Positions 5,215 to 29,907 of a stretch of 42,149 bases of DNA are shown here, piece by piece. Each line of letters starts with the position of its first letter. The first letter of the stretch is position 1. Position numbers and translations under genes: made by a program. Source of the stretch: an uncultured archaeon (GTDB lineage Archaea > Altiarchaeota > Altiarchaeia > IMC4 > SCGC-AAA252-I15); the NCBI GenBank assembly GCA_964423225.1, contig CAYREE010000003.1, positions 1 through 42,149 on the forward strand, given 5' to 3'. The notes beneath the pieces are model-generated. The model ran no database searches. It was not told the DNA's origin and saw only the letters and a program-made list of their open reading frames with translations.

Positions 5215-5219
5215 AAACA

Positions 5220-5625: not shown

Positions 5626-5663
5626 GTATACTAACATAGAAAGAAGAGATAATATCTTCGATC

Positions 5664-6758: not shown

Positions 6759-6819
6759 TTTCCAAAAAAAAATAGTAATAATGATATATATGAACAACTA
6801 ATAGTTAAAGAAAAAAAAA

Positions 6820-7437: not shown

Positions 7438-7446
7438 GGAATTAAT

Positions 7447-9580: not shown

Positions 9581-9596
9581 ATAAGGGTCATTGAAT

Positions 9597-13456: not shown

Positions 13457-15127
13457 TTATATTGTATTTAATTTATAGAAATTGAATACCCAGCTCTCAT
13501 AAGTCTCTATAGTCGATATTTTTTCCAGATGATAAGATTTCTTGATGAAATCACATATCCGGTCATTAGGCGGACTATAACACCAATAACCCTCTAGAAA
13601 ATACGCACAACCATTATCCTCAATGGTTTTTTCCACAAAGTCTGGATTTAATGCCAACATTGCAGACATCGTATTTTGTCCCTGAAATACTGTGACCGCT
13701 GGATTATTCGTAAAAACCACGCAATTATCATCTATTTCATTCACGTTTTTTATCGCAAAATCTCGGAAGATACGGGGTGATTCAGCCTGAATATCAACGG
13801 AAGATATGAAACTTACTGTAGGTAGGAATGTGATGACAGTTAAAAACGTAATAAAAAATAGTGCATCACGCCGATTAGCATATCTTCCAATCAAACGTAC
13901 CGATCTATTCGCACCCCATGAAGCAAGAATAATTAACGGTGGATAACATAGGACAGTATATCGAAATCCAATCCCACCTGAAGTGAAACTCCCTGCATAA
14001 AAAAAGAGATATGAGAGGAAAAACATGAAAAACCATGCGAAAAGAATAGGTCCAAGATAACTCTTACGCCTGATCAGAGAAACCAGACCTATCAGGGCAA
14101 ATGGAGTTAAAACAAGGAGGTGTCTACGACCATTAAACCAATAGGAGGTATTATCAGTCCAGTTCCTATCCATATAATCATACTGGAATTTACCTTCTTC
14201 CGCACCCCAATCATGGATCTGACTAAAGTAGTTAAGATGCGTGAAATGCAGGAGTGAGAACATTACAAAAATAGTCGTGAAATAGAATATATCCTCCATA
14301 AAAATATTGATGCCAATCTTTCTTGCATTCAATAACAATATTAAAAAAACAACGGGAATCATTATCAATGATTCCGGACGAGATTGGACAGCGAATGCAA
14401 GAAATCCCGCGCAACTAAAAAGAAGTGTATAAGACCTCTTCCGCACATAAGCAATGCAGAAAACAACAGATAATAACGATGGGAGAGTATGATAAATCTC
14501 ACTAGACAATGATCCAGTCCAGACTATATGTGCTGGAGTCAATGCAAGGAACAATGCGGAAAATAATGCAGTCTGCTCATCATCGAACATTATATATGTA
14601 AGGAGGAAGATGGCAAGGATAGACAATACAGATATGAGGATGTTAAAAGCATATGCATTAAACTCATTAACACCGAATACAAGATAAAACAGAGATAATG
14701 AATAAGGCAGGGCATTAGGATGTTTATCTATCTCACCCCGCATGCATTTACCGTCAATCCATTCGACAGTACAGTATAAGGCACGTCCAGAAGTGACCAT
14801 CTCTTTTGCTATCTGCATGTATATATCCTCGTCGAAAAGGATCCGGTGGACATTAGGTGGGAGATACACTCTAAGAGACAATCCAATGAGGAATATTATG
14901 CTAAGAAACACAATCACCTTCTTATCGAACCTGAATATCTCAGATAAGACAACCCTTGAACGATATACACAGTAGGCTGTGATTATAGTAGTAATAGATA
15001 AGACAATGAAATAAAAGTAGGGTGTTGAATCGGATTTGAAGTATTCCTCACGGGGAAATAATACTATAAATCCTGAGACCAATAACAATGATACCAGGAT
15101 TATATTATTATACGACTTATCCTCCAT
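13457..15127 (-). CDS. GT-C-fold polytopic glycosyltransferase (PMT/ArnT-like), divergent 556-aa paralogue
   Basis: More than 10 hydrophobic segments. The first extracytoplasmic loop carries FDEDIYMQIAKEM (a DE-x-x-Y acidic motif). The C-terminal soluble domain is Cys-containing. Its start overlaps the carbamoyltransferase stop by 11 nt. Confidence 0.65.
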   Translation of the reverse strand: MEDKSYNNIILVSLLLVSGFIVLFPREEYFKSDSTPYFYFIVLSITTIITAYCVYRSRVVLSEIFRFDKKVIVFLSIIFLIGLSLRVYLPPNVHRILFDEDIYMQIAKEMVTSGRALYCTVEWIDGKCMRGEIDKHPNALPYSLSLFYLVFGVNEFNAYAFNILISVLSILAIFLLTYIMFDDEQTALFSALFLALTPAHIVWTGSLSSEIYHTLPSLLSVVFCIAYVRKRSYTLLFSCAGFLAFAVQSRPESLIMIPVVFLILLLNARKIGINIFMEDIFYFTTIFVMFSLLHFTHLNYFSQIHDWGAEEGKFQYDYMDRNWTDNTSYWFNGRRHLLVLTPFALIGLVSLIRRKSYLGPILFAWFFMFFLSYLFFYAGSFTSGGIGFRYTVLCYPPLIILASWGANRSVRLIGRYANRRDALFFITFLTVITFLPTVSFISSVDIQAESPRIFRDFAIKNVNEIDDNCVVFTNNPAVTVFQGQNTMSAMLALNPDFVEKTIEDNGCAYFLEGYWCYSPPNDRICDFIKKSYHLEKISTIETYESWVFNFYKLNTI

Positions 15128-16811
15128 TTCTATTTACAAAATAATCGCCAATAACTAAATATCTAGCCCCTGTTTTCAAAAACACGTCGATAGCATCATC
15201 AGGAGTGTTTACAATAGGATAACCATGAAGATTATAACTAGTATTCAATACAACACCATATCCAGTTTTTTCTTTAACAGTCTCTAAAAGCCTTCTAAAC
15301 ACCGGATTCTCATCATCCAACATTTGAGGGCGTGCAGATCCATCCACATTTATCACAGAATCCATGTGACCAAGCATATCTTTTTTCACCATATAACCCA
15401 TAGTCATAAAACGGTCAAACTGATCAACATCTTCAAACAATACTTTAGCATCTTCTGAAAGAAGAGACGGACAGAAAGGCTGGAACCAATTCCTCTTCTT
15501 AATCTTAAGATTCAACTTATCCTTGATATCAAGAGAGTCAGCAGGTGCAAGAATACTCCGGTTCCCAAGAGCTCTCGGACCAAACTCCATCCTACCCTGA
15601 TACCACAGTAAAAAATTACCCTTTGATATTAGATCACCTGCAAGTTCAGGTGCATCATCCCTTTTCTCATAGCTAATATTATTTTTCCTAAGGGCTTTCT
15701 CAATCAGTGGAGCAGTATAGTCAGGTCCAAAATACACGTTTTTAACATCAGTTGATTTCATATTGTTCTCCAACATACTCGCATATAATGCAGTCCCAAC
15801 TGCAAGGCCTCCATCACCCATATGCGGGAAAACAAACCATTTCTTCAGCTTTGGATTCGTCCTAATTTTAAGATTCACTTTTATGTTCGAGGCAACTCCT
15901 CCAGACCAGCATACGTTTCGCACACCTGTTTCTTCGATAGCATTCTCAAATAACTGGCAGATATGCTTTTCCAATGTTCTTTGAGCCATATAGGCAAGTT
16001 CTTCGCGTGGAGTATTCCAAAGTATCTTCTTTAGCATTCGATACTTCCCCAGGGTTGAATACTTGCATCTGACATTCATACCGTCTACTTCGAAGAAATC
16101 AATAAGCTTGTTCTCTTCATCAGGGATGGGAAATGCATAATCTGACAATGCCATAACCTTTCCCTCATCCTCCAGTTCTCGCATACCTAGTAGATCAGTG
16201 ACCTGTTCAAAGAACAATCCAAATGAATCCCTTGCCTTTATCGATGAAACGAATTCTATCCCACCATCTTCGTATATACCCACAGTACCGGATAAGGCAT
16301 CACCCACACCATCAAGTGTGATGACAAGGGATTTCTTGAACCCACTACTTAAGGCGGATGCTGCGGCATGAGCATAGTGATGCCCGACAAAATCAAGTCG
16401 ATAATCCTTAAAACCCAGCTTATCAAGGTCTCTTCTAATCAGAAACTCTGATACCTTACGGCAAAAGGGTAGTTCAGGTATCTCAGTAACAGTATGCTTA
16501 AAAGTCTTTCTAAACTCGACTAAAGAGGGTTTATTCGTCTTCCTCCGCCTGAAAAGATAGTAATTGTCCTTCATTGAAGGGAATACACGGGTTAAAGTCT
16601 TCCCAAAATCAGATGTGTTACAAGCAACCAGACCAATATCTGCAGGCTTTAACTTTAAATAATCAAGACATGACTTGATAGACTCGCTTGGAAAGCCTAC
16701 ATGAAGTTTTTTACGGGTGATACGCTCCTCATTTACAGCAACAAGAACACTCTTCTCATCAACAATCGCGGCGCCCGCATCATGACCATCCCATATACCC
16801 AGTATATACAT
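15117..16811 (-). CDS. Carbamoyltransferase, NodU/CmcH family
   Basis: MYILGIWDGHDAGAAIVDE...VAVNEERITRKK (ASKHA/Kae1-like N-domain), HHYAHAASA, and the C-terminal YrdC-like part ...NTSYNLHGYPIV. 564-567 aa is the typical length. Confidence 0.85.
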   Translation of the reverse strand: MYILGIWDGHDAGAAIVDEKSVLVAVNEERITRKKLHVGFPSESIKSCLDYLKLKPADIGLVACNTSDFGKTLTRVFPSMKDNYYLFRRRKTNKPSLVEFRKTFKHTVTEIPELPFCRKVSEFLIRRDLDKLGFKDYRLDFVGHHYAHAAASALSSGFKKSLVITLDGVGDALSGTVGIYEDGGIEFVSSIKARDSFGLFFEQVTDLLGMRELEDEGKVMALSDYAFPIPDEENKLIDFFEVDGMNVRCKYSTLGKYRMLKKILWNTPREELAYMAQRTLEKHICQLFENAIEETGVRNVCWSGGVASNIKVNLKIRTNPKLKKWFVFPHMGDGGLAVGTALYASMLENNMKSTDVKNVYFGPDYTAPLIEKALRKNNISYEKRDDAPELAGDLISKGNFLLWYQGRMEFGPRALGNRSILAPADSLDIKDKLNLKIKKRNWFQPFCPSLLSEDAKVLFEDVDQFDRFMTMGYMVKKDMLGHMDSVINVDGSARPQMLDDENPVFRRLLETVKEKTGYGVVLNTSYNLHGYPIVNTPDDAIDVFLKTGARYLVIGDYFVNRNGG

Positions 16812-16822
16812 GCTAAACAACC

Positions 16823-18226
16823 TTAGATGTTACAGATAAAATTAACGCCAGTCCTTATTAAAGAGGGTAGCTCGCGTACTCCAAAGATGCGCAACATATT
16901 TGTAATAGACCTAGGACGCAGATAAAAACGCCTATAAGCCTTATTTCTTGCCGATTCAAGATCCATATCCTTTGAAATCACATTATTTGCATACTCGAAT
17001 GAATCCCAGCTTTTCCCATCTAAATCATCTTTATGTCGTTCATACAAAGGGGACCCTGGAAACGGTGTAGCAACATAGTATTCCGCAAAATCCAGGGGAA
17101 GATCAAGGGAAAACCTTAGAGTCTGCCGGATTGTATCTATATTCTCCCCAGGTAAACCGAACACAAAATGGCCGACCGTCGCAATCCCTGCATCATGAGC
17201 AAGTTTGACTGCCCTCTTAGAATCTTCAACCTTTATCCCTTTTTTAATATTGTCAAGCACTTCCTGGCTGGACGACTCTAATCCAAATGATATCATCCAA
17301 CATCCAGAAGCCCTCATCAGCTCAAACATTTCGGCATCAACAGTATCCACCCTACTATTACAGAACCATCTGACATCCAATCCTTCATCAATGATCGCCT
17401 GACAAAGGTCTAATACATGTGATTTATCAAGTGTGAAAGTTTCAGCGAAAAAATATAGATCTCTGACCCCAAGTTTCACAGCATGCTTGATCTCCCGGAT
17501 AATGTCTTCAACACTCCTTTTCCTGTATTTCCGACCATAGTAGAATGGGGCCACACAAAAACTACATTCAAATGGACAACCCCTACCAGTCGTGATCAAT
17601 ACATACTTACGACCGAAGACTGGTACTTTATAATTAGACAAGTCAACAAGATCCCAGGCTGGAAGCGGCAGACAAGACAAGTCCATAGCCGACCTTGATG
17701 GATTTTTAATTAGCCTTCCATTCTTGACATATGCAATTCCCGTGACTTTTTCAATCGGTTTAGAAACAAGGTCTTCTAGGGTAGATTCCGGTTCTCCGAA
17801 AATAACTCCATCTACATGACCATGATTTAGAACAGTCTCCCATAGGCTTGAAGCATGGACACCATAGACAAATACCCTACAATCCACTAGCTCACGGATT
17901 CTAGATATGAAATCCATATCATGCAGGAAAGTTGGCGTAGTAGTATTTAAGACAATCAAGTCCGGTTTGAACGATTTGATTTCATCAAGGACTGAAGACT
18001 CAATCATTGAAGCCCCCATAGCATCTATCAGCTTGACATCAGCAACATCCCTGATCATTGAGGCCATATATGCGAGTGTCATAGGAGGATAGACCGATGA
18101 GAAAACAGCTGCCTTATGCTGGCAACGACCTTCTTTCACATACAAGGATTCTGCCGGAGGGTTCAGTAATAATAGCCTAATTTTACACCACCCATAAACG
18201 AGTATAAATGGATTATTATACCTCAA
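16823..18226 (-). CDS. B12-binding-domain radical SAM enzyme (class B rSAM)
   Basis: The N-terminal Rossmann-like IRLLLLNPP...PPMTLAYMAS...DLIVLNTTTP is a cobalamin-binding-domain pattern. TTGRGCPFECSFCVAP is the CxxxCxxC rSAM cluster motif. The start codon is uncertain: the track uses the TTG at 18224-18226 and there is no in-frame ATG near the N-terminus. Confidence 0.8.
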   Translation of the reverse strand: MRYNNPFILVYGWCKIRLLLLNPPAESLYVKEGRCQHKAAVFSSVYPPMTLAYMASMIRDVADVKLIDAMGASMIESSVLDEIKSFKPDLIVLNTTTPTFLHDMDFISRIRELVDCRVFVYGVHASSLWETVLNHGHVDGVIFGEPESTLEDLVSKPIEKVTGIAYVKNGRLIKNPSRSAMDLSCLPLPAWDLVDLSNYKVPVFGRKYVLITTGRGCPFECSFCVAPFYYGRKYRKRSVEDIIREIKHAVKLGVRDLYFFAETFTLDKSHVLDLCQAIIDEGLDVRWFCNSRVDTVDAEMFELMRASGCWMISFGLESSSQEVLDNIKKGIKVEDSKRAVKLAHDAGIATVGHFVFGLPGENIDTIRQTLRFSLDLPLDFAEYYVATPFPGSPLYERHKDDLDGKSWDSFEYANNVISKDMDLESARNKAYRRFYLRPRSITNMLRIFGVRELPSLIRTGVNFICNI

Positions 18227-18290
18227 ATAATTCCATAAATATATAATACTATATAGTATATGTTAGATAGTTTAATGAGTGTAAGCTAAA

Positions 18291-18869
18291 TTGAATAATA
18301 TCCACAGAAATATTGTATTAACAATCATACTAGCCATACTGATTTCTATAGGATGTATTTCGTATATGAAAAGTGATTTGGGGGTAGCAGACGATCTTCA
18401 AACCGTGATTAACGACGCCCTTAAAGACAAGAATGTGAAATACTGTTTTGACAGGCTGGGTGACAATAAGATTGACGTGGGAACCTGCATAATGACTGTT
18501 GCAAAAAACCTTAGTAATCCAAGGATATGCAATCAGTTCTGGAGTGTTGAAACCATGTCAGAATGCCTTTTTGAAGTCGCTAAGATACAGGAGAATGCTC
18601 AACCATGCGAACGGATCCCTTTTGACTCACCATATAAGTCAAAATGCAAATCTTATTTGAAGAATATCGCGGTTGATAAAATGAAGGTCGTAATGTGTAA
18701 GAAACTGATGGGTGAAGACAAGAACGATTGTCTGATAAGGATTGGCGAAAAGAGAAAAAGTGCGAGAATATGCACCAAACACTTTAAGAAAGGAACAGAG
18801 ATTCATACAACATGCCTATCTCGTGTAAAAGAGGCTAAAGAATCGGAAAAACAATTAGAAAATACTTGA
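18291..18869 (+). CDS. Predicted lipoprotein with five Cys-pair repeats (same family as 6820..7437)
   Basis: TTG start. The hydrophobic LTIILAILISIGC has a lipobox-like IGC (Cys22). Cys pairs at 52/66, 80/92, 106/119, 136/147, 161/175, with C-(I/L)-x3-(V/I)-(A/G) after the second Cys. Confidence 0.65.
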   Translation: MNNIHRNIVLTIILAILISIGCISYMKSDLGVADDLQTVINDALKDKNVKYCFDRLGDNKIDVGTCIMTVAKNLSNPRICNQFWSVETMSECLFEVAKIQENAQPCERIPFDSPYKSKCKSYLKNIAVDKMKVVMCKKLMGEDKNDCLIRIGEKRKSARICTKHFKKGTEIHTTCLSRVKEAKESEKQLENT

Positions 18870-18923
18870 TTCTTTACTTACTGTCAGTAATATTAAAAAA
18901 GTCTATATAAGATTCATGATAAG

Positions 18924-20045
18924 ATGGGGAAAAAAATGAAAAAAGAGGGATTGCATGCTCTAGTATCCAAAAAAAAGGATAAATCCAAGGATAAAGACCA
19001 TTCATTTCAAGAAATGACCAAGACAGCGATAATCATCTTAGGTATCGCTATCATAGCTGTGATCTTCTTCTATCCAGGATCGGTTTCCCAGGATGATGAG
19101 GGTACCCAGGAGATAACCACAGATACCACTATTTCAGGCAATAATCAACAAACAATACAGAACAATCCACTAACAAAAGAGGAACAGATAAAAACCCAGA
19201 CAGGAAAAGAATCAAGCACAACTCAAGTAGAACAAATACAAAGAGAGGATGAGAATCTAAATGCTTCTCGCATATACAGTCCATATAAGATATTCAAGGA
19301 TATATACTGGATCGACGCACCAGGAAATATCCGAGCCCGAGGAGCATATGCTTTAAACACTTCAAAAGGATTTGTACTCATAGACACAGGATGTAACAAA
19401 GGATTAAAACAGCTAATAAAAAACCTGAAGACGATTGGAGTGAACCCAAACAAGATATTCCATGTATTAAACACACATGGCCACGGCGACCACTGTGGAG
19501 GAAATGAATACTTCCAGAAAAAAGGCGCAAAGATAGTCATACACGAAGATGATGTCGAAGCTCTTCAAACAGGTGATGAACAATTATACTGCAAATATTG
19601 CTGTCCTAAAGGGCTTAACCCGGTAACACCAGACATAATACTAAAAAACAGGCAGAAACTCAATTACAAAGACAAAAAATTAATTGTAAAATACTTTCCA
19701 GGACATACGCCAGGCAGCGTGATATTTTTGTTTAGAACCAATTACTCAAATAGTAGTATAAACATCTACTTCACAGGCGATACACTTCTCGGACCAGGAT
19801 GGTATGCGCATTGGCTAGGAAATAAATATTCAAACCTCACCCAATTCGCATCATCAGTAAAAAGACTTGAAAAAGAGACATTAAAAGATCCAGAAGATGA
19901 TAAATATCTGATCATCCCAGGCCACATAAAACCACATAAAGAATGGACATTCAAGATAACCGATAGAACCGATTTCCTAAAAAACCTGAAGGTAATCCAT
20001 AAAAAGATACTATTAAGGAAAAATGCTACAGGAGATATTCTATGA
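18924..20045 (+). CDS. Membrane-anchored metallo-beta-lactamase-fold hydrolase
   Basis: N-terminal basic segment plus one TM (TAIIILGIAIIAVIFFY), a Thr/Gln/Glu-rich linker, then an MBL domain with GFVLIDTG and the HxHxDH motif NTHGHGDHCGG. Confidence 0.8.
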   Translation: MGKKMKKEGLHALVSKKKDKSKDKDHSFQEMTKTAIIILGIAIIAVIFFYPGSVSQDDEGTQEITTDTTISGNNQQTIQNNPLTKEEQIKTQTGKESSTTQVEQIQREDENLNASRIYSPYKIFKDIYWIDAPGNIRARGAYALNTSKGFVLIDTGCNKGLKQLIKNLKTIGVNPNKIFHVLNTHGHGDHCGGNEYFQKKGAKIVIHEDDVEALQTGDEQLYCKYCCPKGLNPVTPDIILKNRQKLNYKDKKLIVKYFPGHTPGSVIFLFRTNYSNSSINIYFTGDTLLGPGWYAHWLGNKYSNLTQFASSVKRLEKETLKDPEDDKYLIIPGHIKPHKEWTFKITDRTDFLKNLKVIHKKILLRKNATGDIL

Positions 20046-21811
20046 AGAAAAAAACCGAGAACAAGACGAAACCAAACAAAACATGGAAGAAGACAGCGTA
20101 TGTAATCGGTACAATATTCGCCATAGTATCAATCATTGTTCTGGCAAAAACACTGACAAACAATCCAATACAAGAAGAGAAAAAAGTCAAAACCCTAATT
20201 CTCGGAGTGGACGGCGCAGAATGGGACGTAATAATGCCGATGATAAAAAAGGGAAAGCTTCCGAACATTGGAAAGCTCATGAATTCAGGATATTATGGAG
20301 ACCTAGTCTCAGTTCAACCACTACTATCCCCACCAGCATGGGGATCTGCAATAACAGGCATGATGCCTGAAAAACACGGTGTAAAATACTTCTACGCATG
20401 CTCAGACGGAACGCCAGGCAGAGACTGTAAGGGAAGAGGGAAAGTCCATCAAATAGACTCCACATTCCTCAAGACAAATACATACTTTGATGTGATCAGC
20501 GAAATGGGGGGTAAACCCATGATCATGTATATCCCATTTGTCGGATTCCCAGTATGGGAAGTAAACGGGATAATGATCGGCCTTCCTAAAATAGGGAACA
20601 GGCCCGAGATCAAGGAAAGGTTTAAAGTCTATCCTGAAACGCTTCTTTCCGAACTTCCAGAGGATATAATTCATCAGATGGGGTGCATATTCGACAAGAC
20701 ATTAGCAGACATAAAATTGAACAAGACGTGCAATGGCGATGATCTGCTAAAAGATGAGAATTTTAAAATGGCTTTAGATAGTTACAGCCAACTCAATAAC
20801 AATGCTGACAATTGGAGTGTGAGAAATGACCAGGTATTTTACCGACTCTATAATGTGAACCGAAAGAAGAATGTGGCAAAATACTTGATGGATAACTATG
20901 ATTACGATAATTTCATGATAGTGTTCGATGAAGGCGATTATATGCAACATCTGTTCTGGAGATATTCCGATGAAGGACATCCAGGATACGATCCAAAATT
21001 CAAGGATAAACACGATATGCTTATAGAATATATGTTCGTTGAACTAGACCGGATTATTGGAGAGCTATTGGAGGATGCAGGTGAGAACACTGTCGTATAC
21101 ATGGTGTCGGATCATGGTTTCAGACAGACATTCCACATACATATGGAGCCGCTATTAAAAATGATTAGCCAGACGCTCGGACAAGATATCACATTCTGTA
21201 TTAAAAACGATAATGTGAAATACAGACTTTTCAATGAGATAGCCAGGATACCATTATGCCATGGAAAAGACGTTGAAGAAGATGCAAAAGATATAAGCGA
21301 GCTTAGAAGGCTTTTGAAAAACGTCAAGTTCAAGGAGTCTGGGATGCCAGTATTTGACAGGCTTAATACAGCAAATTCACCGAAAATAGATTATTATGCG
21401 AAAATCAATATGCATGGATTTTACGGGATGGGAAACACACGAATCCTTATCGATGGTGAGTTCGAGGATAGTGAAATAAAGATCTATGACATGGTGAATT
21501 TAGAGACGCGCTCCGGAGCCCATAACAAGACTGGAGTATACATTATAAACGGTCCGATGATTAAGAAGGGTTCAAGTACCAAGGATATCATAGACATCGC
21601 TCCAACAGTCCTTTATTCCATGGGCTACCCAATACCCCGATACATTGATGGAAAAATCATAATCAATGCATTCAAAGACGATTTTATTGGGGAAAACGAG
21701 ATAAGAAAACTCAAAATCAATATGACAAGAGATGTTGAACACATTAGTTGGGGAGACAGTAAGCTTGAAAAAGAGATGCTTGAAACATTAAAATCATTAG
21801 GCTATGTATAA
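20042..21811 (+). CDS. Membrane-anchored type I phosphodiesterase / nucleotide pyrophosphatase-family enzyme (alkaline-phosphatase superfamily)
   Basis: N-terminal TM (YVIGTIFAIVSIIVLA), LILGVDGAEWD, LLSPPAWGSAITGMMPEKHGV (nucleophile loop plus HG), MVSDHGF (metal site). ATGA overlap with the MBL gene. Confidence 0.75.
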   Translation: MKKKTENKTKPNKTWKKTAYVIGTIFAIVSIIVLAKTLTNNPIQEEKKVKTLILGVDGAEWDVIMPMIKKGKLPNIGKLMNSGYYGDLVSVQPLLSPPAWGSAITGMMPEKHGVKYFYACSDGTPGRDCKGRGKVHQIDSTFLKTNTYFDVISEMGGKPMIMYIPFVGFPVWEVNGIMIGLPKIGNRPEIKERFKVYPETLLSELPEDIIHQMGCIFDKTLADIKLNKTCNGDDLLKDENFKMALDSYSQLNNNADNWSVRNDQVFYRLYNVNRKKNVAKYLMDNYDYDNFMIVFDEGDYMQHLFWRYSDEGHPGYDPKFKDKHDMLIEYMFVELDRIIGELLEDAGENTVVYMVSDHGFRQTFHIHMEPLLKMISQTLGQDITFCIKNDNVKYRLFNEIARIPLCHGKDVEEDAKDISELRRLLKNVKFKESGMPVFDRLNTANSPKIDYYAKINMHGFYGMGNTRILIDGEFEDSEIKIYDMVNLETRSGAHNKTGVYIINGPMIKKGSSTKDIIDIAPTVLYSMGYPIPRYIDGKIIINAFKDDFIGENEIRKLKINMTRDVEHISWGDSKLEKEMLETLKSLGYV

Positions 21812-21816
21812 AACCA

Positions 21817-23364
21817 TCAGGGTACATAATAAATAACAGACTTCCTCGCTATCTGATTCTTTTTAATCTGCTTTTTTGCATCCCTAATATTCTTTTTCTT
21901 AACCGAGTCGAATACTTTTGTCCAAGCGTCAGGGATACTCCTCAAACATTTTTTACTCGCTATTAACTTCTTCGCCTTCGGGGGTCTAAGATTATCCAAG
22001 AGTATATATGCATCCGATACTTTCTTACAATTAAGATTTTTTAACGACCTTGCTTCAAGACTAGAATCTCCCCCAGAATATATGTCAATCCAGTATCTGG
22101 CTAACTCTGAAGCATAGACAACACCCTGCTTATCATTAAGGAAAACAGCGGCTTCATGCATTCCATAAGTCCTCGTAGAATCAAAAAGCCAAAGCCTATA
22201 AGTCACAAATAAAGAGCTTAAAATAAGGGAAAAAATTAAAAGTTGTATGAATAATCGCCCCCTCTCAGAACTCCGATATAACATAATCATTGCACGAGAC
22301 ATAAGGATCGAGGCTACTGGCATCAATATCGACAAGTATCTCGCATCACGGTGTAGAAACTTAATAGGGCTAATGCTCTGCAAACCAAAATTCAGATAAA
22401 ATGCTAGGACAAAAAACCAGATGAGCAGGTATACAGTTGACTTATCTTTTCTAAGAAGGATATAAAGCAGTGATAAAACGATAACATACCCGTAAAAACC
22501 ATATAAAGGCGCTCTAATAAACTTAAAATCACCCATAAATCTATCAAGATTAAGTTCATATGAATCCGGTTCGACTGAGAATAGAATACGAGGATAGAAG
22601 ATAAGAAAATCCCTATTAGCGTTTGCATTATAATAATCTTGGATTGCCTTGAAATTATCTGCTGGATTTATACCATGGACTAAATAGACTGTTATCTGCA
22701 ATGTGAAGATTATCAAAAATCCGAGTACGAAATAACCAAGTCCGATCTCAATCCTCTTTGATACAGCATACCGATACAAACCAATGGCTATTACAACGAA
22801 TATGAAGAAGGCTCCTGAGAGTTTCACTAGATAGGCTATGCCAGAGACTAATCCTGAGATAAGAAGATTAAATGACATGTTTTGCCCATCCTTTAATCCC
22901 CGTAATAAAAAAAATGCTGACAAGGTCATATAAAATTCCAGGGGAATATCAGGCATAATCCAGGTAGCCCAAATAATATTGAAAGGTACAAGTGAGATAA
23001 AAAAGGCTGCGAGAAGAGATGTGTCCTCATCATAATAGAGTCTTGAGATCTTATAGACCAGGGGTATCAATAGCAGTGAAAATATCAGAGACTGTGAAAC
23101 AAGAACCCATACATTCATGCCAAAAACCTTCACTAATATATATAGTGGGAAGATCAGCATGATACGACTGCCAAAAACACCTGTAAGTTCATTCAAATCA
23201 AATTCTTCATCCAGGGTATAGAGTATCCGGATATATTCAAAGGTATCACTCAAGTTGACTCCAACAAAAAAATAAAGCCTTACCAGAAGAGAGACCAATA
23301 CAATCAATGATAAGATGATCAATACCTTCGAATCCTGTAAACGTTTCTTTTTATCTTTCATCAT
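21817..23364 (-). CDS. GT-C-fold polytopic glycosyltransferase (PMT_2/ArnT-like), paralogue group 1, tandem copy B
   Basis: 515 aa; LLVRLYFFVGVNLSDTFEY, ATWIMPDIPLEFY, C-terminal ...SVIYYVP. Collinear with 23367..24920 over its full length. Confidence 0.75.
   Translation of the reverse strand: MMKDKKKRLQDSKVLIILSLIVLVSLLVRLYFFVGVNLSDTFEYIRILYTLDEEFDLNELTGVFGSRIMLIFPLYILVKVFGMNVWVLVSQSLIFSLLLIPLVYKISRLYYDEDTSLLAAFFISLVPFNIIWATWIMPDIPLEFYMTLSAFFLLRGLKDGQNMSFNLLISGLVSGIAYLVKLSGAFFIFVVIAIGLYRYAVSKRIEIGLGYFVLGFLIIFTLQITVYLVHGINPADNFKAIQDYYNANANRDFLIFYPRILFSVEPDSYELNLDRFMGDFKFIRAPLYGFYGYVIVLSLLYILLRKDKSTVYLLIWFFVLAFYLNFGLQSISPIKFLHRDARYLSILMPVASILMSRAMIMLYRSSERGRLFIQLLIFSLILSSLFVTYRLWLFDSTRTYGMHEAAVFLNDKQGVVYASELARYWIDIYSGGDSSLEARSLKNLNCKKVSDAYILLDNLRPPKAKKLIASKKCLRSIPDAWTKVFDSVKKKNIRDAKKQIKKNQIARKSVIYYVP
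22916..22945. repeat. 30-nt block identical to 24466-24495 (GCTGACAAGGTCATATAAAATTCCAGGGGA on the + strand)
   Basis: Direct comparison of the two tandem GT-C genes shows the same offset (1550 nt) for a second identical 17-mer (23003-23019 and 24553-24569). Confidence 0.85.
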
Positions 23365-23366
23365 TA

Positions 23367-24920
23367 TCAGGGTACATAATAGATCACTGACCTTCTTAAT
23401 ATCAGATTCTTCTTGACCTTCAAATCATTGGTGATAACAGATGATTGCTTAGTGGAATCAAATACTTTCTCCCAATCAGAGGGAGAATTCTTCAAGCATT
23501 TTTTCCGGGATATAACGTTCTTTGTCTTAGGCGGGCGTAGATTATCAACGAGTACATATGCATTTGAGACCTTGTTACAATTAAGCTTCTTAATACCCTT
23601 GAAGGTCAGATTATGTTCTTTTCCACTATAGGTTTCGATCCACTGGCGAGCCATCATAGAGGTATATATCACTCCGTTCTTCTCCTTAATGAAATCAAAT
23701 GCCAACTGCATCCCATATGTCCTTGTTATGTCAAAAAGCCATAAACGATGAGTGACATACAATGAGCTTACGATAAGAAAGATAAAAATGATTGCTGTAA
23801 GATATCTGCCATTCCTAGAACTCCTATAAACTGTTATCAAGAAACGAGACATGATGATGATTGCTACCGGCATAAGGATTGATAAAAACCGGGCATCACG
23901 GTGAATAATCTTGAAAGTCTTCAAGCTTTGTATCCCAAAATTCAGGTATAAAGCCAATACAAACAACCATATTAGAAGCGGTATGGTCGACGTATCACGT
24001 TTATAGATTAGATAAAGAAGGGACAATACTATCACATAGCCAAACAATCCGTAGAGAGGAGCTCTTATAAAACCAAAATCACCGAAATACCTGTCGATAT
24101 TCAATGTGTTTGTTTCAGGATCGATTGAAAACAATATCAATGGATAATAGAATAAATGCCCACGATTAGCTCTTACCTCATAATAATCCTGGATATTCGA
24201 ATAATTCTTGACAAGATCAATACCTGAATAAATATATGCGCCCATCTGAAGCAGGAATATCACTAAAAAACCAATGAAAAAAAAGCTTAGTCTCCATTCA
24301 ACCTTCCTTTTAACGAAATAATTATATACTCCAAAAGCGATTACAACAAGGATGAAAAAAGCTCCAGTAACCTTTGTTAAATATGCGATACCAGTGAAAA
24401 ACCCAGATATAAGAGAATATGAGGAAAGCCTATCCTCATGCTTAAAACCCTTTAATAAAAAGAAGGCTGACAAGGTCATATAAAATTCCAGGGGAACGTC
24501 AGGCATAAGCCAAGAAGCCCAGATAATGTTAAACGGGATTAATGATATTAAGAAGGCTGCGAGAAGAGAGGTCTCCGTGTCATAATAAAGACGCGATAAT
24601 TTATAGACAAGGGGTATTAACAACAATGAGCATACCATCGACTGGGATACTAACAACATTATATTAACGCCAAAAATCTTTGTAAGGAGAAAAGGCGGAA
24701 TAATCATCATAATCCTACTTCCAAAAAGCCCAGACAAATCTTTAATCTGGAAATTCTCTTCAAGCTCATAGATTATCCTAAGATAAGTGTAGGAATCACT
24801 AAGGTTGATGCCGATAAAATAATAAAGACGAATAAACAAGGAGACTATCATAATCAATAAAATGATGTAAAAAGCATTCAAACCACTACCTTGTTTCTTC
24901 ACGGATTTATTAGATTTCAT
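23367..24920 (-). CDS. GT-C-fold polytopic glycosyltransferase (PMT_2/ArnT-like), paralogue group 1, tandem copy A
   Basis: 517 aa; LFIRLYYFIGINLSDSYTY, ASWLMPDVPLEFY, C-terminal ...SVIYYVP. A 2-nt spacer separates it from the downstream copy. Confidence 0.75.
   Translation of the reverse strand: MKSNKSVKKQGSGLNAFYIILLIMIVSLFIRLYYFIGINLSDSYTYLRIIYELEENFQIKDLSGLFGSRIMMIIPPFLLTKIFGVNIMLLVSQSMVCSLLLIPLVYKLSRLYYDTETSLLAAFLISLIPFNIIWASWLMPDVPLEFYMTLSAFFLLKGFKHEDRLSSYSLISGFFTGIAYLTKVTGAFFILVVIAFGVYNYFVKRKVEWRLSFFFIGFLVIFLLQMGAYIYSGIDLVKNYSNIQDYYEVRANRGHLFYYPLILFSIDPETNTLNIDRYFGDFGFIRAPLYGLFGYVIVLSLLYLIYKRDTSTIPLLIWLFVLALYLNFGIQSLKTFKIIHRDARFLSILMPVAIIIMSRFLITVYRSSRNGRYLTAIIFIFLIVSSLYVTHRLWLFDITRTYGMQLAFDFIKEKNGVIYTSMMARQWIETYSGKEHNLTFKGIKKLNCNKVSNAYVLVDNLRPPKTKNVISRKKCLKNSPSDWEKVFDSTKQSSVITNDLKVKKNLILRRSVIYYVP
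24466..24495. repeat. 30-nt block identical to 22916-22945
   Basis: See 22916-22945. Confidence 0.85.
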
Positions 24921-24927
24921 TAACAGC

Positions 24928-26295: not shown

Positions 26296-26387
26296 GGTTT
26301 ATCCATTGTGGCACTATACAATATATACTAAGAAACAAATCAAAAAAAACAGACAGAATTTTATTAATTTAAATCAACTCTAAGTTT
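26296..26387. promoter_or_regulatory. Divergent intergenic region; presumably holds promoters for the sulfatase-like/GT-C/GT-C operon (-) and the GT-C gene (+)
   Basis: 92-nt AT-rich spacer between divergent genes, containing TATA-like ACAATATATACT and TTTTATTAATTT. No transcription data are available. Confidence 0.3.
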
Positions 26388-26393
26388 TTGTTA

Positions 26394-27953
26394 ATGATAG
26401 ATGAAATAATGGATAAACCAGGTAAGAGACATATAATCATCATCATACTATTCGCCTTGCTGATAAGAATCGTATTTCTTGTAGGATATAATCTGTCTGA
26501 CGACCTCGGATACGCCGAAACTGCAGGTATCATCATTTCAGGAAAAGAATATGTGTCTACAACAACCACGTTCTACCTGGTATCAAACATGCGATTGTTG
26601 ATGGTCTATCCAATAGCATTATCATTCAAAATCTTTGGTGTCAACGATTATTCCCTTGTAATATATCCCTTATTATGCTCAATTGGAGGTATCTTCATAA
26701 CCTATAAACTTGGCGAGATGCTCTTCAACAAAGAGACAGGCATCCTCGCAAGCCTACTTCTTTCCTTTTATCCAATGGATGTGATCTATGCTACATGGGC
26801 TATGCCCGACGTGCCGATAGCTTTTTTCATGGCATCCGCCACATACTTTTTTTTAAAAGCCGAAAAACTCCGGGAAAATGAAAAATACTCGATCAAAGGA
26901 ATAAACATCAATAAAAGAGGAGTCTTATTGGTAGTTACCGGACTCATAATCGGTGTTTCCTACCTGATAAGGGTCTCAGGTCTAATGATCCTATTAGTCA
27001 TAATAACATACATCCTTTATCGAACATGGATTACAAAAAGAATAAAACTGGATTATTGTTGGATACTTACAGGTATCCTAATCATAATATTTCTAGAAGC
27101 GTGTTTTTACTACACTCAATTAGGGAGCATTGATGGATTAAGCCTAAGATATAAAGCCATTGAAGATACTTTTGGATCCACACCAGGCTACCATGACCAG
27201 TATTATTTCTTAAGAGGTATGCTTAATTTAGACTACGAAAACAATTTCATGTGGGAGAACAGATATGATGTGCATTACGGACTCTACTATTATCTGATAA
27301 TCCCCGCAATAATAATCTGTATTCTAACAAGGGATAAAAAAGCCTTCCCCGTGATAATCTGGTTGATTGCATTATTCCTATGGTCAAATTATGGGTCAAT
27401 GAGCATTACAAAATATGTCCTAATACACAAGCTACACAGACATATGACAATAATAGCGATACCATCCATGCTAATACTATCCAAAGTCATTATCGACAGG
27501 TTCTATAACAAGAAATCCATTATTCCAAGGACGATCGGCTTGCTTATAATAATCGCACTATTTACCACCTCAATTTTTTATATTTCAAACAGGTACGTGT
27601 ACTTAAAAGCCTCAGTACATGACTTCACACTAATGCATACAATATTAAAAGACTTAGACGACAAACCGATTTATGGCGATCCAGTCGTACGAACCCAATT
27701 GAAATACAAATTCAAATATAAGAAAAATGAATTGATCAGAACAATTGAAAATGTTAAAGAATGCGATGAGATAAAAGACGCATATGTGATAATGAAGGGT
27801 TCGCGCGGATTTGTTGACAATGAATTCTTTATCAATTCAATACCAGAATGCATGTATGAGCCACCCTCAAACTGGGATCTGATAGAGATTATCAAAGGCC
27901 CAAAAATAGATTTTTTTAGCTCATATGATCCAGTAGTATACTATGTCAGATAA
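26394..27953 (+). CDS. GT-C-fold polytopic glycosyltransferase (PMT_2/ArnT-like), paralogue group 1
   Basis: About 519 aa (track start is the TTG at 26388; first ATG at 26394). LLIRIVFLVGYNLSDDLGY, ATWAMPDVPIAFF, and a C-terminal domain with C-x28-C as in 9597..11132, its closest paralogue by eye. Confidence 0.75.
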   Translation: MIDEIMDKPGKRHIIIIILFALLIRIVFLVGYNLSDDLGYAETAGIIISGKEYVSTTTTFYLVSNMRLLMVYPIALSFKIFGVNDYSLVIYPLLCSIGGIFITYKLGEMLFNKETGILASLLLSFYPMDVIYATWAMPDVPIAFFMASATYFFLKAEKLRENEKYSIKGININKRGVLLVVTGLIIGVSYLIRVSGLMILLVIITYILYRTWITKRIKLDYCWILTGILIIIFLEACFYYTQLGSIDGLSLRYKAIEDTFGSTPGYHDQYYFLRGMLNLDYENNFMWENRYDVHYGLYYYLIIPAIIICILTRDKKAFPVIIWLIALFLWSNYGSMSITKYVLIHKLHRHMTIIAIPSMLILSKVIIDRFYNKKSIIPRTIGLLIIIALFTTSIFYISNRYVYLKASVHDFTLMHTILKDLDDKPIYGDPVVRTQLKYKFKYKKNELIRTIENVKECDEIKDAYVIMKGSRGFVDNEFFINSIPECMYEPPSNWDLIEIIKGPKIDFFSSYDPVVYYVR

Positions 27954-27960
27954 TAGAGGA

Positions 27961-28761
27961 TTATTTCACACAGAAATCTTCCCGCATACCCTGCATCCCA
28001 GGACATTCGCAAAGCCTATTCGTATCCATATAAACATTGACTAATCCCTGGATGCAAGTATAAGAATAATCCCTGATATTAATACAATCCGATAACATGG
28101 CGCACGGATCCTCTCCATAAGCCCTGTTTAAGATATGTCCCATACATAGGCCGAAATGATGATAACAAGTGTCAACTGCTTGTGGATTTGTGTTGATGAG
28201 ATCATTATGAACTGTCTCGCAAAAATTTAATGATAAGTATTTATCTTTGTTGCAGACCAGTTCCTGGATATGTCCGATACAATGATGTTGGAATATATCT
28301 GAATTTAGACATGATTCATACGCATTTTCAAAGTTGTCTTGGACAATTGCTAATTGCTCTGCATTTTTAAAAAAACATTCGCTTCGCCAAATTTGATCTT
28401 CAACAGAATTGCACATTTTATTCACATTATCCTTGATTTCTTGATAGTTTGGCGTCTCGCGGATAATATGATTGGAGACCTCGATGATGCAGTGGCTCTT
28501 TAAATGAGTCCTCTTTATCTTGTAGCAGTAATCCAAACCCTTTGTATAGTTTATATTGTAAGAATAACTTGATTTTAGGAAATAACAGTAATCACGGTAG
28601 TTATCAGTAAATTCGTCACAATTCATTGAAACACGATAGTTTTCAGATATGCTTAGTAATTGATAGGAATAATATACGGTTATCAACAGGGTAAAACACA
28701 TTAGCCCATAGGCTATGATCTGTCGTCTCTTACTATTTTGTTTTCTTGCTTCTTGATCCAT
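27961..28761 (-). CDS. Membrane-anchored Cys-rich protein (18 extracytoplasmic Cys, mostly C-x9-11-C pairs); same family as 6820..7437
   Basis: 266 aa; N-terminal basic region plus TM (IIAYGLMCFTLLITVYY), then repeated C-x10-11-C units (48/59, 79/91, 117/129, 151/161, 170/181 ...). Its start lies 1 nt after the upstream stop. Confidence 0.6.
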   Translation of the reverse strand: MDQEARKQNSKRRQIIAYGLMCFTLLITVYYSYQLLSISENYRVSMNCDEFTDNYRDYCYFLKSSYSYNINYTKGLDYCYKIKRTHLKSHCIIEVSNHIIRETPNYQEIKDNVNKMCNSVEDQIWRSECFFKNAEQLAIVQDNFENAYESCLNSDIFQHHCIGHIQELVCNKDKYLSLNFCETVHNDLINTNPQAVDTCYHHFGLCMGHILNRAYGEDPCAMLSDCINIRDYSYTCIQGLVNVYMDTNRLCECPGMQGMREDFCVK

Positions 28762-28762
28762 T

Positions 28763-29245
28763 CTAATTAGTCCTAAAGATAAATGATCTGCCGATCTCCG
28801 ACGTACATGATGCCTTAAGAGAATATTGAGATATCTTAGTGCATAGGAGATTTAGTTTTGTCATGAGTCTTTCAAAACCGAGCATTTCCTCTTTGTTTTT
28901 GTTGTGATAATTGACTAGAACAGTGTGAACAAGTTCATAATAGCAGGCATCCCTGATAGTCTGATCCTTGATTTGACCGCATATCTGCTCCGACTTTTCT
29001 GGATCCACTAATATCAGTTTAAATGCAGTATCTGCAAGGCATCCATTAAACTCTAGTTCGTTTGATTGTTCGTCACATTCACTTGTTGAAGTATTACTAA
29101 ACGGATTTATTATTAGGATAAAGTTTACGATAAAAAGCAGGAGTGTAAGGGCAAGTGGAAGATAGCTATTTTTGAATCCATCACCACCATCATCTTTCGC
29201 AGCATCAAGTTTCTTTTTCTTCATTTTTTTACTACCACCAATCAT
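28763..29245 (-). CDS. Membrane-anchored Cys-pair repeat protein (3 pairs); same family
   Basis: 160 aa; Lys-rich N-terminus, TM (LPLALTLLLFIVNFILII), Cys pairs 57/69, 89/101, 135/147 (each C-x11-C). ATGA overlap with the GT2 stop. Confidence 0.6.
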   Translation of the reverse strand: MIGGSKKMKKKKLDAAKDDGGDGFKNSYLPLALTLLLFIVNFILIINPFSNTSTSECDEQSNELEFNGCLADTAFKLILVDPEKSEQICGQIKDQTIRDACYYELVHTVLVNYHNKNKEEMLGFERLMTKLNLLCTKISQYSLKASCTSEIGRSFIFRTN

Positions 29246-29907
29246 AAGACTTCCATAATAATGCGTTTTAATATACGCCAGCCATCACTAATCGTCCCAA
29301 GCTTTCCCACTCCAGACTTTCGTGCCTTCTCAAAACTTGGTACTTCAAGAGTCCTTAACTTGTTTTTAGCAGCTTTAATAGATATTTCAGTTTCAATACC
29401 AAAACCATCTTCAGTAAGTTCAAGGTCTTTTATAACCTCTCGTCTAAAGGACCGGTATCCGTAACAGAGGTCTGAATAATTTGTCCTCCATAAAGTATTT
29501 ACCATTTTTACGAACATCCAGTTGCCAAACTTGCGTATTAGACTGATATCCTCACTTCCTCCACCTTGTATGAACCTAGAGCCCATACAAATATCATAAC
29601 CCGCTTCTATACCTGCGATAAGAAGTATTAGCTCGCTTGAAAGATGTGAGCAATCAGCATCCATCATAATAATAATGTCTCCTTTACCTTCGTTCATACC
29701 GATTCTGAGTGCAGATCCCTTCCCTTTATCATCAAAAAGGACGGTTAATCCCTTATCCTCTGCTATTTTAGCTGTATTATCCTTTGAATACCCATCGACG
29801 ATTATTATCTCATCGATGAAATCCGGTAGGGTTCCCAGAACAACAGGTAGGTTTTCCTCCTCATTTAACGTAGGAATGATTACTGTTATGCTTTTTCCAT
29901 AAAACAT
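29242..29907 (-). CDS. GT2-family glycosyltransferase, dolichyl/polyprenyl-phosphate sugar synthase-like (DPM1/AglD-type catalytic domain, no TM)
   Basis: 221 aa; ITVIIPTLNEEENL, IIIVDGYSKDNT, IIIMMDADCSH (DxD region). The short soluble GT-A architecture is typical of polyprenyl-P-mannose/glucose synthases. Confidence 0.8.
   Translation of the reverse strand: MFYGKSITVIIPTLNEEENLPVVLGTLPDFIDEIIIVDGYSKDNTAKIAEDKGLTVLFDDKGKGSALRIGMNEGKGDIIIMMDADCSHLSSELILLIAGIEAGYDICMGSRFIQGGGSEDISLIRKFGNWMFVKMVNTLWRTNYSDLCYGYRSFRREVIKDLELTEDGFGIETEISIKAAKNKLRTLEVPSFEKARKSGVGKLGTISDGWRILKRIIMEVL

Follow-up and report, generated by a model that had tools for sequence, protein, structure and literature searches.

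In three-component systems of extracytoplasmic glycosylation, a polyprenyl-phosphate-sugar synthase (GtrB), a flippase (GtrA) and a glycosyltransferase of the GT-C type (Gtr*) are combined (PMC11127046). In Haloferax, the AglD/AglR/AglS step proceeds in a comparable order, since a dolichyl-phosphate (Dol-P)-linked sugar is made inside the cell, flipped and transferred outside (PMC3871713). Archaea are well known for variable clusters of glycosylation genes (PMC5867893). Published comparisons of the Altiarchaeales go no further than generic genes for glycosyltransferases and polysaccharides in the Alti-1 clade (PMC4975002). In this study, a 16.4-kb block of genes between aroA and trpS (positions 13457-29907) was analyzed in the genome of an uncultured archaeon of the Altiarchaeota. 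The block is located on contig CAYREE010000003.1 of assembly GCA_964423225.1, of which positions 1 to 42,149 of the forward strand were examined; this whole 42,149-nt stretch is referred to as the window. A contig of the JGI metagenome 3300009008, the source sample, overlaps with it. No description of such a gene module was found in the literature on Altiarchaeota glycosyltransferases and on sulfatase-fold enzymes with a nucleophilic-site threonine (Thr type) in glycan loci.

On balance, and with modest confidence, the block is regarded as an accessory surface-glycosylation island of a marine Altiarchaeota genome, the products of which would perform extracytoplasmic, lipid-carrier-dependent glycosylation from a dolichyl-phosphate-sugar donor. 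This reading builds on the predicted protein families and their topology and on a gene core that is conserved next to trpS in related lineages. The 13 genes of the island are the following.

13457..15127, minus strand: GTC1, GT-C glycosyltransferase of subfamily B, 556 aa; overlaps CarbT by 11 bp, with aroA 14 bp downstream
15117..16820, minus strand: CarbT, NodU/CmcH-type O-carbamoyltransferase, 567 aa, predicted cytoplasmic; Carbam_trans_N and Carbam_trans_C
16823..18226, minus strand: rSAM, B12-binding radical SAM enzyme, 467 aa, predicted cytoplasmic; B12-binding and Radical_SAM
18291..18869, plus strand: Cys192, predicted lipoprotein with repeated C-x11-14-C units, 192 aa; 11 Cys, IGC lipobox
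18924..20045, plus strand: MBL, membrane-anchored MBL-fold hydrolase, 373 aa; Lactamase_B
20042..21811, plus strand: NPP, NPP/COG3379-type enzyme of the alkaline phosphatase superfamily with an N-terminal anchor, 589 aa; Phosphodiest
21817..23364, minus strand: GTC2, GT-C of subfamily A, 515 aa, tandem duplicate of GTC3; PMT_2 and PMT
23367..24920, minus strand: GTC3, GT-C of subfamily A, 517 aa, ortholog of the single core GT-C in the related loci L009 and L016
24928..26295, minus strand: Sulf, sulfatase-fold lipoprotein with Thr93 at the nucleophile position, 455 aa; Sulfatase
26388..27953, plus strand: GTC4, GT-C of subfamily A, 521 aa, closest to GTC0 outside the island (37%); PMT_2 and PMT
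27961..28761, minus strand: Cys266, anchored Cys-rich protein with 19 Cys, 266 aa, member of the core module
28763..29245, minus strand: Cys160, anchored Cys-rich protein with three C-x12-C pairs, 160 aa
29242..29907, minus strand: GT2, dolichyl-phosphate-hexose-synthase-like catalytic domain, 221 aa; 7 bp downstream of trpS

The 13 consecutive open reading frames (ORFs) are separated by intergenic distances of -11 to 92 bp and form five predicted transcription units on both strands. These are rSAM-CarbT-GTC1, to which aroA may belong, Cys192-MBL-NPP, Sulf-GTC3-GTC2, GTC4 alone and GT2-Cys160-Cys266, which may start with trpS. The block is bordered by aroA (12168-13442; EPSP synthase, 380 bits) and trpS (29915-31021; tRNA-synt_1b, 160 bits). 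Fold assignments are Pfam matches above the gathering cut-offs, and topology was predicted by a Kyte-Doolittle hydropathy scan. An earlier reading of the stretch (the original prediction), which had been made from the letters and their translated ORFs, had named the same 13 genes together with their folds, and all of these were recovered from the ORF listing and the Pfam search. It had also placed the chemistry on the outer face of the membrane, with every product except GT2, rSAM and CarbT being polytopic or anchored, and the hydropathy scan agrees. The island GT-Cs contain 7-10 hydrophobic segments, whereas one N-terminal segment each was detected in Cys192, MBL, NPP, Sulf and Cys160, and none in CarbT, rSAM and GT2. 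The N-terminal hydrophobic stretch of Cys266 is weaker and remained under the threshold of the scan. Lipobox-like sequences were found in Cys192 (IGC) and Sulf (FGC), and the lipobox Cys is kept in homologues.

Relatives were obtained by a TrpRS scan of species-representative genomes, resulting in metagenome-assembled genomes of Candidatus Altiarchaeota/Altiarchaeales with 63-76% identity, and their loci (given L numbers here) were searched with all window proteins using tblastn. The distance between trpS and aroA is 17 bp in L008 and 71 bp in L007, where the block is absent. The downstream order panD-fumB-fumA-(malic)-aroC, followed in L008 by Mre11-like and RadA-like genes, is identical to the backbone order of the window. 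Since L007 and L008 show the same backbone synteny without it, the 16.4-kb block was classified as an accessory insertion. It was considered whether the block is of recent foreign origin or a mobile island, and both were rejected: no tRNA, Rfam match, flanking direct repeats, integrase or transposase domain was found at the island, and the GC content at third codon positions is 0.387 in the island and 0.386 in the backbone. The block is a resident variable region and no recent mobile element.

In the closest relative L009 (TrpRS 76%), trpS is followed by orthologs of GT2 (73% identity), GTC3 (41%), Cys160 (39%), Cys266 (36%), Sulf (53%) and MBL (44%). The module of L009 also holds a distant B12-type radical SAM gene (28% identity) on the opposite strand, and the contig ends after MBL. 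The locus L016, located via the Sulf ortholog P0190, has the order trpS-GT2(75%)-GT-C(44% to GTC3)-Cys160(47%)-Cys266(33%)-Sulf(52%), with all genes in the same direction and gaps of 4-41 bp. Beyond Sulf, an ORF for a 59-aa lipoprotein and another Cys266-like gene were found, after which this contig ends. A core of five genes (GT2, GT-C, Cys160, Cys266 and Sulf, plus MBL in L009) is therefore conserved next to trpS in three related lineages, and these three carriers cluster in a neighbour-joining tree of TrpRS (a single gene, no bootstrap). In L005, unrelated genes are located behind trpS. In the genome studied here the island has been expanded by GT-C duplication and by added genes. The co-occurrence of all 13 genes as a block, as proposed originally, could be confirmed in part: 6 of the 13 gene types are found next to trpS in L009 and 5 of the 13 in L016, while the other seven are either specific to this genome or would lie beyond the contig ends. 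The core genes were not dispersed in the relatives.

GT2 matches Glycos_transf_2 with 87 bits, carries the sequence D-A-D at residue 83 and lacks transmembrane (TM) segments. Its best NCBIfam match is AglJ (140.8 bits, below the cut-off of 325), and DPhHxTase_Halo was reached with 77 bits vs a cut-off of 375. Among solved structures, the Dol-P-Man synthase of P. furiosus (5mlz, 5e-21) was followed by ArnC (4e-9). As judged from these comparisons, GT2 appears to be nearest to the archaeal Dol-P-Man synthase and AglJ and can be described as polyprenyl-phosphate-sugar-synthase-like. The suggested logic of a lipid-phosphate-sugar synthase together with GT-C transferases is supported by matches in Pfam, NCBIfam and the solved structures.

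The same matches bear on an alternative in which the island provides an outer-face branch of N-glycosylation, with GT2 and the GT-Cs acting like AglD and AglS, terminal sugars being added to N-glycans from an AglB encoded elsewhere and the hydrolase-fold proteins editing the glycans. AglJ is the best NCBIfam match of GT2 (141 bits), the AglD/AglR/AglS step offers a precedent (PMC3871713), and the anchored enzymes contain 4-6 N-x-S/T sequons each. A further point is the Haloferax locus L022 (9001-12195; GCA_008806905.1), in which the NPP homologue P0013 has rhamnose-synthesis (rml) genes on one side and a Polysacc_synt flippase gene on the other. Such gene types also make up the agl11-agl15 region of H. 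volcanii (PMC3892788). In strain DS2, the locus tags of agl13 (epimerase, HVO_2056) and agl15 (flippase, HVO_2055) are consecutive. However, an AglB/STT3 gene and the WWDxG motif are absent from the 42-kb window, the AglJ cut-off of 325 bits was missed, and the Cys-rich partners have no counterpart in known Agl clusters. This branch is considered unlikely, although less so than the other alternatives discussed below. Domains of the types Polysacc_synt, MatE, Wzy_C, GtrA and STT3 were detected on none of the window ORFs of at least 100 aa, and the WW[DE]xG (WWDxG) motif has no occurrence in the six frames, in agreement with the earlier statement that the window holds no flippase, AglB or Wzx/Wzy gene. 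The additional claim that the island resembles bacterial systems rather than the Agl pathway was overstated. AglJ and the Dol-P-Man synthase are the best GT2 matches, and the contrast is unjustified because AglD/AglR/AglS use the same lipid-carrier logic (PMC3871713).

The GT-C proteins were divided into the subfamilies A (GTC0, 2, 3 and 4), B (GTC1) and C (GTC5-7), of which GTC0 and GTC5-7 are encoded outside the island. PMT_2 was matched with 44-52 bits by GTC1-4 (cut-off 26.1; GTC1 49 bits), and PMT with 31-35 bits by GTC2-4 (cut-off 22.7). GTC1, with 8 hydrophobic segments, is weakly similar to the other GT-Cs, and its NCBIfam matches LA_3751/2 and Agl23 are far under the cut-offs. GTC2 and GTC3 share 58% identity, and their genes show direct DNA repeats at a spacing of 1550 bp. 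The four subfamily-A paralogues all have N-[LW]-S-D42 immediately behind TM1, which gives the first extracytoplasmic loop a conserved acidic residue, and they share a P-D-[VI]-P motif with invariant P140-D141. A sequence search of the PDB with GTC3 returned nothing. In a Foldseek search of the PDB with an AF2 model based on these four paralogues, the top 24 matches were all GT-C enzymes (AglB/STT3, ArnT, Pmt4, DPY19, AftA and EmbC among them) with TM-scores of only ~0.4, so that this weak model does not separate GT-C families; the structural alignments with any solved GT-C showed 11-16% identity.

As another explanation, the PMT-like GT-Cs could transfer hexose from Dol-P-hexose to Ser/Thr of proteins, with the Cys-rich proteins or the stalk of MBL among the targets. 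PF02366 (PMT) and PF13231 are above their cut-offs in GTC0, GTC2, GTC3 and GTC4, Pmt4 is one of the structural matches of the weak GT-C model, and the pairing of a Dol-P-hexose synthase and a PMT-like enzyme has a parallel in actinobacterial Ppm1/Pmt. The linker of MBL has 14 Ser/Thr within 40 residues, and the GT-C gene is always accompanied by those of Cys160 and Cys266 in L009 and L016. An assignment to GT39 in the strict sense is not supported by the sequences, as loop 1 has S-D instead of D-E and a Pfam match to the MIR domain is absent. The Cys-rich proteins are not Ser/Thr-rich, and their conserved non-Cys motifs suggest a folded domain over a passive acceptor. Protein O-glycosylation would moreover leave the enzymes of the alkaline phosphatase superfamily without a role; it is judged to be somewhat more doubtful than the N-glycosylation branch.

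The Cys-rich proteins Cys192, Cys266 and Cys160 have no Pfam matches. The orthologs of Cys266 were found by tblastn in the loci fetched via trpS and Sulf, and 11 Cys columns are invariant over four aligned Cys266 sequences including the L016 paralogue. A word-index search of a 5.8-billion protein set returned only Cys266 itself, and its alignment against a metagenome collection, which apparently does not include the contig of the window, gave nothing usable. An hhalign comparison identified Cys160 as a paralogue of the N-terminal portion of Cys266 (probability 88.9%, E 2.4e-6). Over three genomes, both keep their Cys pairs and the motifs W-R-x-E-C-F-F-K, C-I-G-H and E-I-G-R-P-F-L-F-R. Since non-Cys motifs are conserved, Cys160 and Cys266 can be argued to be folded functional domains. 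The Cys266 and Cys192 families could not be linked by hhalign (probability 36%). Cys192 is related to Cys205 (E 5e-10), which is encoded outside the island. Their repeat family is unnamed; in a set of 1.8 billion representatives, 64 weak relatives were found, many with lipoboxes and none with a Pfam domain. The idea that this family is specific to GT-C loci was dropped, as relatives occur in contexts unrelated to glycosylation.

Sulf matches the Pfam family Sulfatase with 166 bits and has a single N-terminal hydrophobic segment with the FGC lipobox. Its sequence T93-T-P-S-L97 aligns to the C/S-x-P-x-R motif of S1 sulfatases. In a MAFFT alignment of the query and its 120 best hits, Thr was found at the nucleophile position in 117 of 121 sequences, and Arg was not among the residues tallied at the fifth motif position. 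The metal ligands D58/H59 and D275/H276 are conserved in the clade. Because Thr replaces Cys/Ser, the clade cannot form formylglycine, though it is widely annotated as 'arylsulfatase A-like'. In its nucleophile type, the clade agrees with LtaS, EptA and NPP. The best PDB matches of Sulf are soluble sulfatases, and LtaS and LtaP also match at 1e-8 to 1e-10. When the Sulf alignment was compared with the metagenome collection, which apparently lacks the window's own contig, only a 23% match (L014) was obtained.

For NPP, Phosphodiest was reached with 85.6 bits vs a cut-off of 23, and the residues D57, T105, D357, H358 and H494 are invariant among 8 homologues. A sequence search of the PDB gave no match. 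The earlier assignment of phosphoester-type chemistry to this pair is in line with the Thr at the nucleophile position of both NPP and Sulf. MBL matches Lactamase_B with 63 bits and contains HGHGDH (HxHxDH) at residue 185. It scored 99.5 bits against the NCBIfam B3 model, the cut-off of 240 not being reached, and matched GOB-18 with 5e-19. By these scores, MBL is an MBL-fold hydrolase resembling subclass B3, while an identity as beta-lactamase is not supported by the B3 cut-off. Behind the anchor, a Thr/Gln-rich stalk of ~60 aa was identified.

NPP and Sulf have a C-terminal tail in common, which consists of an acidic stretch followed by L-x-x-[LIVM]-G-Y-[LIVM]. The tail sequences are ...LKSLGYV in NPP (21791-21811) and ...LREIGYLE in Sulf (24928-24951). 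The tail forms the C-terminus in 95 of 122 NPP homologues and in 100 of 120 Sulf homologues, both bacterial and archaeal. The 59-aa lipoprotein ORF of L016 (11528-11707) consists of a signal, a linker and the LGY tail and nothing else. The tail could be a docking, sorting or oligomerisation element.

The anchored enzymes also bear on the interpretation given in the original prediction, in which a system like those for teichoic acid, lipopolysaccharide modification or arabinogalactan builds or decorates a phosphodiester-linked glycopolymer or lipid of the envelope. The envelope in question may be the outer membrane that has been reported for Altiarchaeales. Two enzymes of the alkaline phosphatase superfamily carry Thr at the nucleophile position, like LtaS, EptA and NPP, LtaS and LtaP are among the PDB matches of Sulf (1e-8 to 1e-10), and GT2, GT-C, NPP and Sulf types occur together again in the locus L019 described below. 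A double membrane was described for Altiarchaeum (PMC4975002, PMC4460559); the relatives used here are of the Alti-2 type. The analogies to teichoic acid and lipid A systems did not hold for Sulf, the anchor of which is of the lipoprotein type only, without the polytopic lipid-binding domain found in LtaS, EptA and OpgB. Soluble sulfatases are its best PDB matches, and genes for glycerol- or ribitol-phosphate, CDP-alcohol and polymerase functions are absent. Such a glycopolymer system is therefore regarded as very unlikely.

The combination of gene types recurs outside these related loci. In L019 (174-7031; GCA_053996315.1, GC 0.28), which belongs to a genome unrelated to the window, genes for a GT2 with 4 TM segments, a second GT2 (229 aa), a PMT_2 GT-C, a Phosphodiest protein and a Sulfatase protein are consecutive and co-directional. 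The Sulfatase protein belongs to the Thr clade (36% identity to Sulf). The next genes encode membrane proteins, a GT4, an rSAM/SPASM protein, a methyltransferase and an LPG_synthase_TM protein. In L002, an NPP homologue was found together with MatE, Wzy_C, GT2 and two B12-type radical SAM genes. The contig L004, from the same metagenome as the window and with a tetranucleotide correlation of 0.925, encodes within 1101-8460, in this order, an 884-aa protein (56 Cys, repeats of ~70 residues with 6 Cys each), a Polysacc_synt flippase, an NPP paralogue (41%) and a second NPP. This contig may derive from the same or a sister genome, in which case it would supply the flippase that is absent from the window. 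For the Thr-type sulfatase contexts L017, L018 and L020, a GT-C neighbourhood was not found, so that the association of Thr-type sulfatase and GT-C is recurrent and not universal. Taken further, GT2, GT-C, NPP-like enzyme and Thr-type sulfatase, the latter two with a common C-terminal tail of acidic helix and LGY, could represent an uncharacterised but widespread extracytoplasmic pathway for attaching or remodelling phosphoester-linked sugars on the envelope, to which the Altiarchaeota have added Cys-rich partners, possibly for a double-membrane envelope. This extension is speculative and is rated about as doubtful as protein O-glycosylation.

The two cytoplasmic enzymes CarbT and rSAM were compared with known families. 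CarbT reached 185 bits for Carbam_trans_C and 116 bits for Carbam_trans_N; its nearest solved structures are NovN (1.9e-62) and TobZ (2e-57), and the NodU equivalog was matched with 112 bits vs an unmet cut-off of 1000. The rSAM protein (Radical_SAM 109 bits, B12-binding 44 bits) contains CPFECSFC (CxxxCxxC) at residue 217. No equivalog cut-off was reached, the best NCBIfam match being HpnJ (223 bits vs a cut-off of 578), and the nearest solved structure is AprD4 (2e-39). The nearest relatives of both proteins, NovN/TobZ and AprD4, are sugar-tailoring enzymes, which suggests a similar function here. Two other functions were considered and rejected. An anaerobic sulfatase maturase was excluded for rSAM, which is of the B12 and not of the SPASM type, while Sulf has no Cys/Ser-x-P-x-R to be matured. 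A phosphonate link, indicated by weak PhpK and PhnA matches, was discarded, since phosphoenolpyruvate mutase is absent and the scores are far under the cut-offs.

Genes related to those of the island were also identified elsewhere in the window.

6820..7437, plus strand: Cys205, satellite Cys-repeat lipoprotein with a very regular 25-aa C-x10-C-x13 repeat
9591..11132, plus strand: GTC0, satellite GT-C of subfamily A; PMT_2 and PMT above the cut-offs
34879..38901, plus strand: GTC5-7, three tandem GT-C-like paralogues of subfamily C, ~445 aa each

GTC0 (37% identical to GTC4) splits the genes of the alpha and beta subunits of fumarase with gaps of 10 bp and 6 bp, whereas fumA and fumB adjoin in L007 and L008 according to tblastn, without GTC0. 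The Cys205 gene has aroC and the malic enzyme gene as its neighbours and is missing from that site in L008. The genes of GTC5-7 lie between the RFC small-subunit gene and ileS, and their products have 7-8 TM segments and a mutual identity of 36-44%. PF02366 (PMT) was matched by GTC5 with 26.7 bits (above the cut-off of 22.7) and by GTC7 with 21.5 bits (just below it), and GTC6 has no Pfam match. Since the genes of RFCs and ileS are adjacent in L009, GTC5-7 are absent from that position there. In total, GT-C genes account for 11.9 kb, or 28% of the 42-kb window. The island is therefore not self-contained, as GT-C and Cys-repeat genes are scattered among the housekeeping genes of the window. As a unit, the originally proposed block was correctly delimited, but it is no closed system.

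In L009 (8498-9700) and L016 (3599-5014), different extra PMT_2 GT-C genes were found between truD and the MazG-like ORF upstream of trpS, and none is present at that position of the window. These truD-side genes are a further sign of the turnover of single GT-C genes. The MazG-like ORF itself (31018-31299), a 93-aa MazG/PRA-PH-like ORF with weak Pfam scores of ~18-22 bits, is located directly upstream of trpS, and its position is kept in L009 and L016.

The scattered genes raise the question of whether the island represents one pathway at all or a hot spot that accumulates independently acting envelope genes such as GT-Cs, Cys-repeat lipoproteins and hydrolases. Single GT-C insertions elsewhere, even between fumA and fumB, the Cys-repeat lipoprotein gene between aroC and the malic enzyme gene, the differing extra PMT_2 genes of L009 and L016 between truD and trpS, the five predicted transcription units on both strands and the Cys192 relatives in unrelated contexts would fit such a hot spot. 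In contrast, the five or six core genes stay neighbours, operon-like in L016, across lineages with proteins of 33-75% identity, and the combination of families is independently present in L019. A mere accumulation of unconnected genes is hence considered extremely improbable.

Three further features of the backbone were observed. A type III glutamine synthetase (3112-5214; GSIII_N 248 bits) and a pyruvoyl-type aspartate decarboxylase PanD (11714-12058; 150 bits), both of types more usual in bacteria, are encoded in the archaeal backbone. The glutamine synthetase gene and aroC are separated by 449 bp (5215-5663), and the sole ORF in this interval (128 aa, 5251-5637) is of low complexity, has no Pfam match and is probably not a gene.

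For the favoured reading of a surface-glycosylation island, the following order of steps can be proposed. On the cytoplasmic side, the TM-less GT2 would load a hexose onto dolichyl phosphate, and CarbT and the B12-type rSAM would tailor a sugar inside the cytoplasm. A flippase encoded elsewhere would carry the lipid-linked sugar over the membrane, where the GT-C paralogues would pass it to outer-face acceptors, which may be an N-glycan, protein Ser/Thr, a lipid or a polymer. NPP, Sulf and MBL may introduce, remove or trim substituents of the phosphoester type, or they may process the carrier. Cys160 and Cys266 may be dedicated partners or acceptors of the core GT-C.

Several points weigh against this proposal. 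A flippase, an acceptor gene or a nucleotide-sugar pathway that would link the steps was not found within the island, and no specific sugar or reaction can be named, since every NCBIfam equivalog cut-off was missed. GTC1, CarbT, rSAM, Cys192, NPP and GTC4 are linked only by their adjacency in this genome, and the co-occurrence rests on two relatives, the contigs of which end inside or just after the module. Moreover, single GT-C and Cys-repeat genes are also found between housekeeping genes, so that adjacency may in part be due to a wider dissemination of these families and not to one pathway. The AF2 model of the subfamily-A GT-Cs is weak (pLDDT 59, pTM 0.62), and the single-sequence AF2 model of Cys266 is all-alpha with low confidence (pLDDT 53).

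Altiarchaeota are a widespread uncultured subsurface lineage whose envelope biosynthesis is almost uncharted and whose best-studied member is double-membraned. For this lineage, the island provides a concrete gene set with a conserved core of five to six genes and defined lineage-specific additions. In addition, two large mis-annotated clades can be flagged, the Thr-type "arylsulfatase A-like" proteins and the COG3379-type "AlkP phosphohydrolase/phosphomutase" proteins. Both recur in archaeal and bacterial surface-glycan loci, have the C-terminal tail in common and carry no assigned function. The density of GT-C genes, with 28% of the window and an insertion even inside the fumarase pair, points to a rapid diversification of outer-face glycosylation in this clade, and such variation is usually tied to pressure by viruses or predators. 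If protein Ser/Thr were the acceptor, the GT-Cs would be candidates for archaeal O-glycosylation enzymes, which to our knowledge are still unidentified.

What is uncommon here is a conserved core that includes orphan Cys-rich partners, the recurrence of GT2, GT-C, NPP and Thr-type sulfatase as neighbours, the common C-terminal tail and the dense insertion of GT-C genes into housekeeping operons, in a lineage whose envelope is unusual. With LtaS, EptA (MCR) and OpgB, Sulf shares an extracellular sulfatase-fold domain with Thr instead of formylglycine. Unlike these enzymes, it has no N-terminal membrane domain of five helices for binding the lipid donor and carries only a lipoprotein signal. Sulf is also closer in sequence to soluble S1 sulfatases, and its C-terminal LGY tail is common with the NPP-like family.

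Both the Pmt/Ppm1 pair (GT39) and the ArnC/ArnT pair of lipid A modification (GT83) combine a Dol-P- or undecaprenyl-phosphate-sugar synthase with a PMT_2/PMT GT-C, as does the island, and ArnC and ArnT are among the matches obtained. The island GT-Cs differ from these by an identity of only 11-16% to solved GT-Cs, and the MIR domain and the genes of the 4-amino-4-deoxy-L-arabinose pathway are absent.

In comparison with the three-component systems, a GtrA, SMR (small multidrug resistance) or MATE flippase gene is missing in the window, four to eight GT-Cs are present instead of one, and the island adds ectoenzymes of the alkaline phosphatase superfamily and the MBL fold as well as Cys-rich partners. 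The carrier is presumably dolichol, since the host is an archaeon. The common features are the joint encoding of a GT2 synthase-like enzyme and polytopic GT-Cs, the predicted transfer at the outer face and a GT-C repertoire that varies between lineages.

For Haloferax, the AglD/AglR/AglS step and the agl5-agl15 genes differ from the island in that no AglB or AglR-type gene is located nearby, the island itself holds no nucleotide-sugar genes and the AglJ score was not reached; Cys-rich proteins, a Thr-type Sulf and MBL are no Agl components. Nevertheless, GT2 is nearest to AglJ and the Dol-P-hexose synthases, and an NPP homologue is found among rml and flippase genes of Haloferax (PMC3871713, PMC3892788). 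Close relatives differ in the content of their agl clusters (PMC5867893), just as the island block next to trpS is present in some of the related lineages and absent from others.

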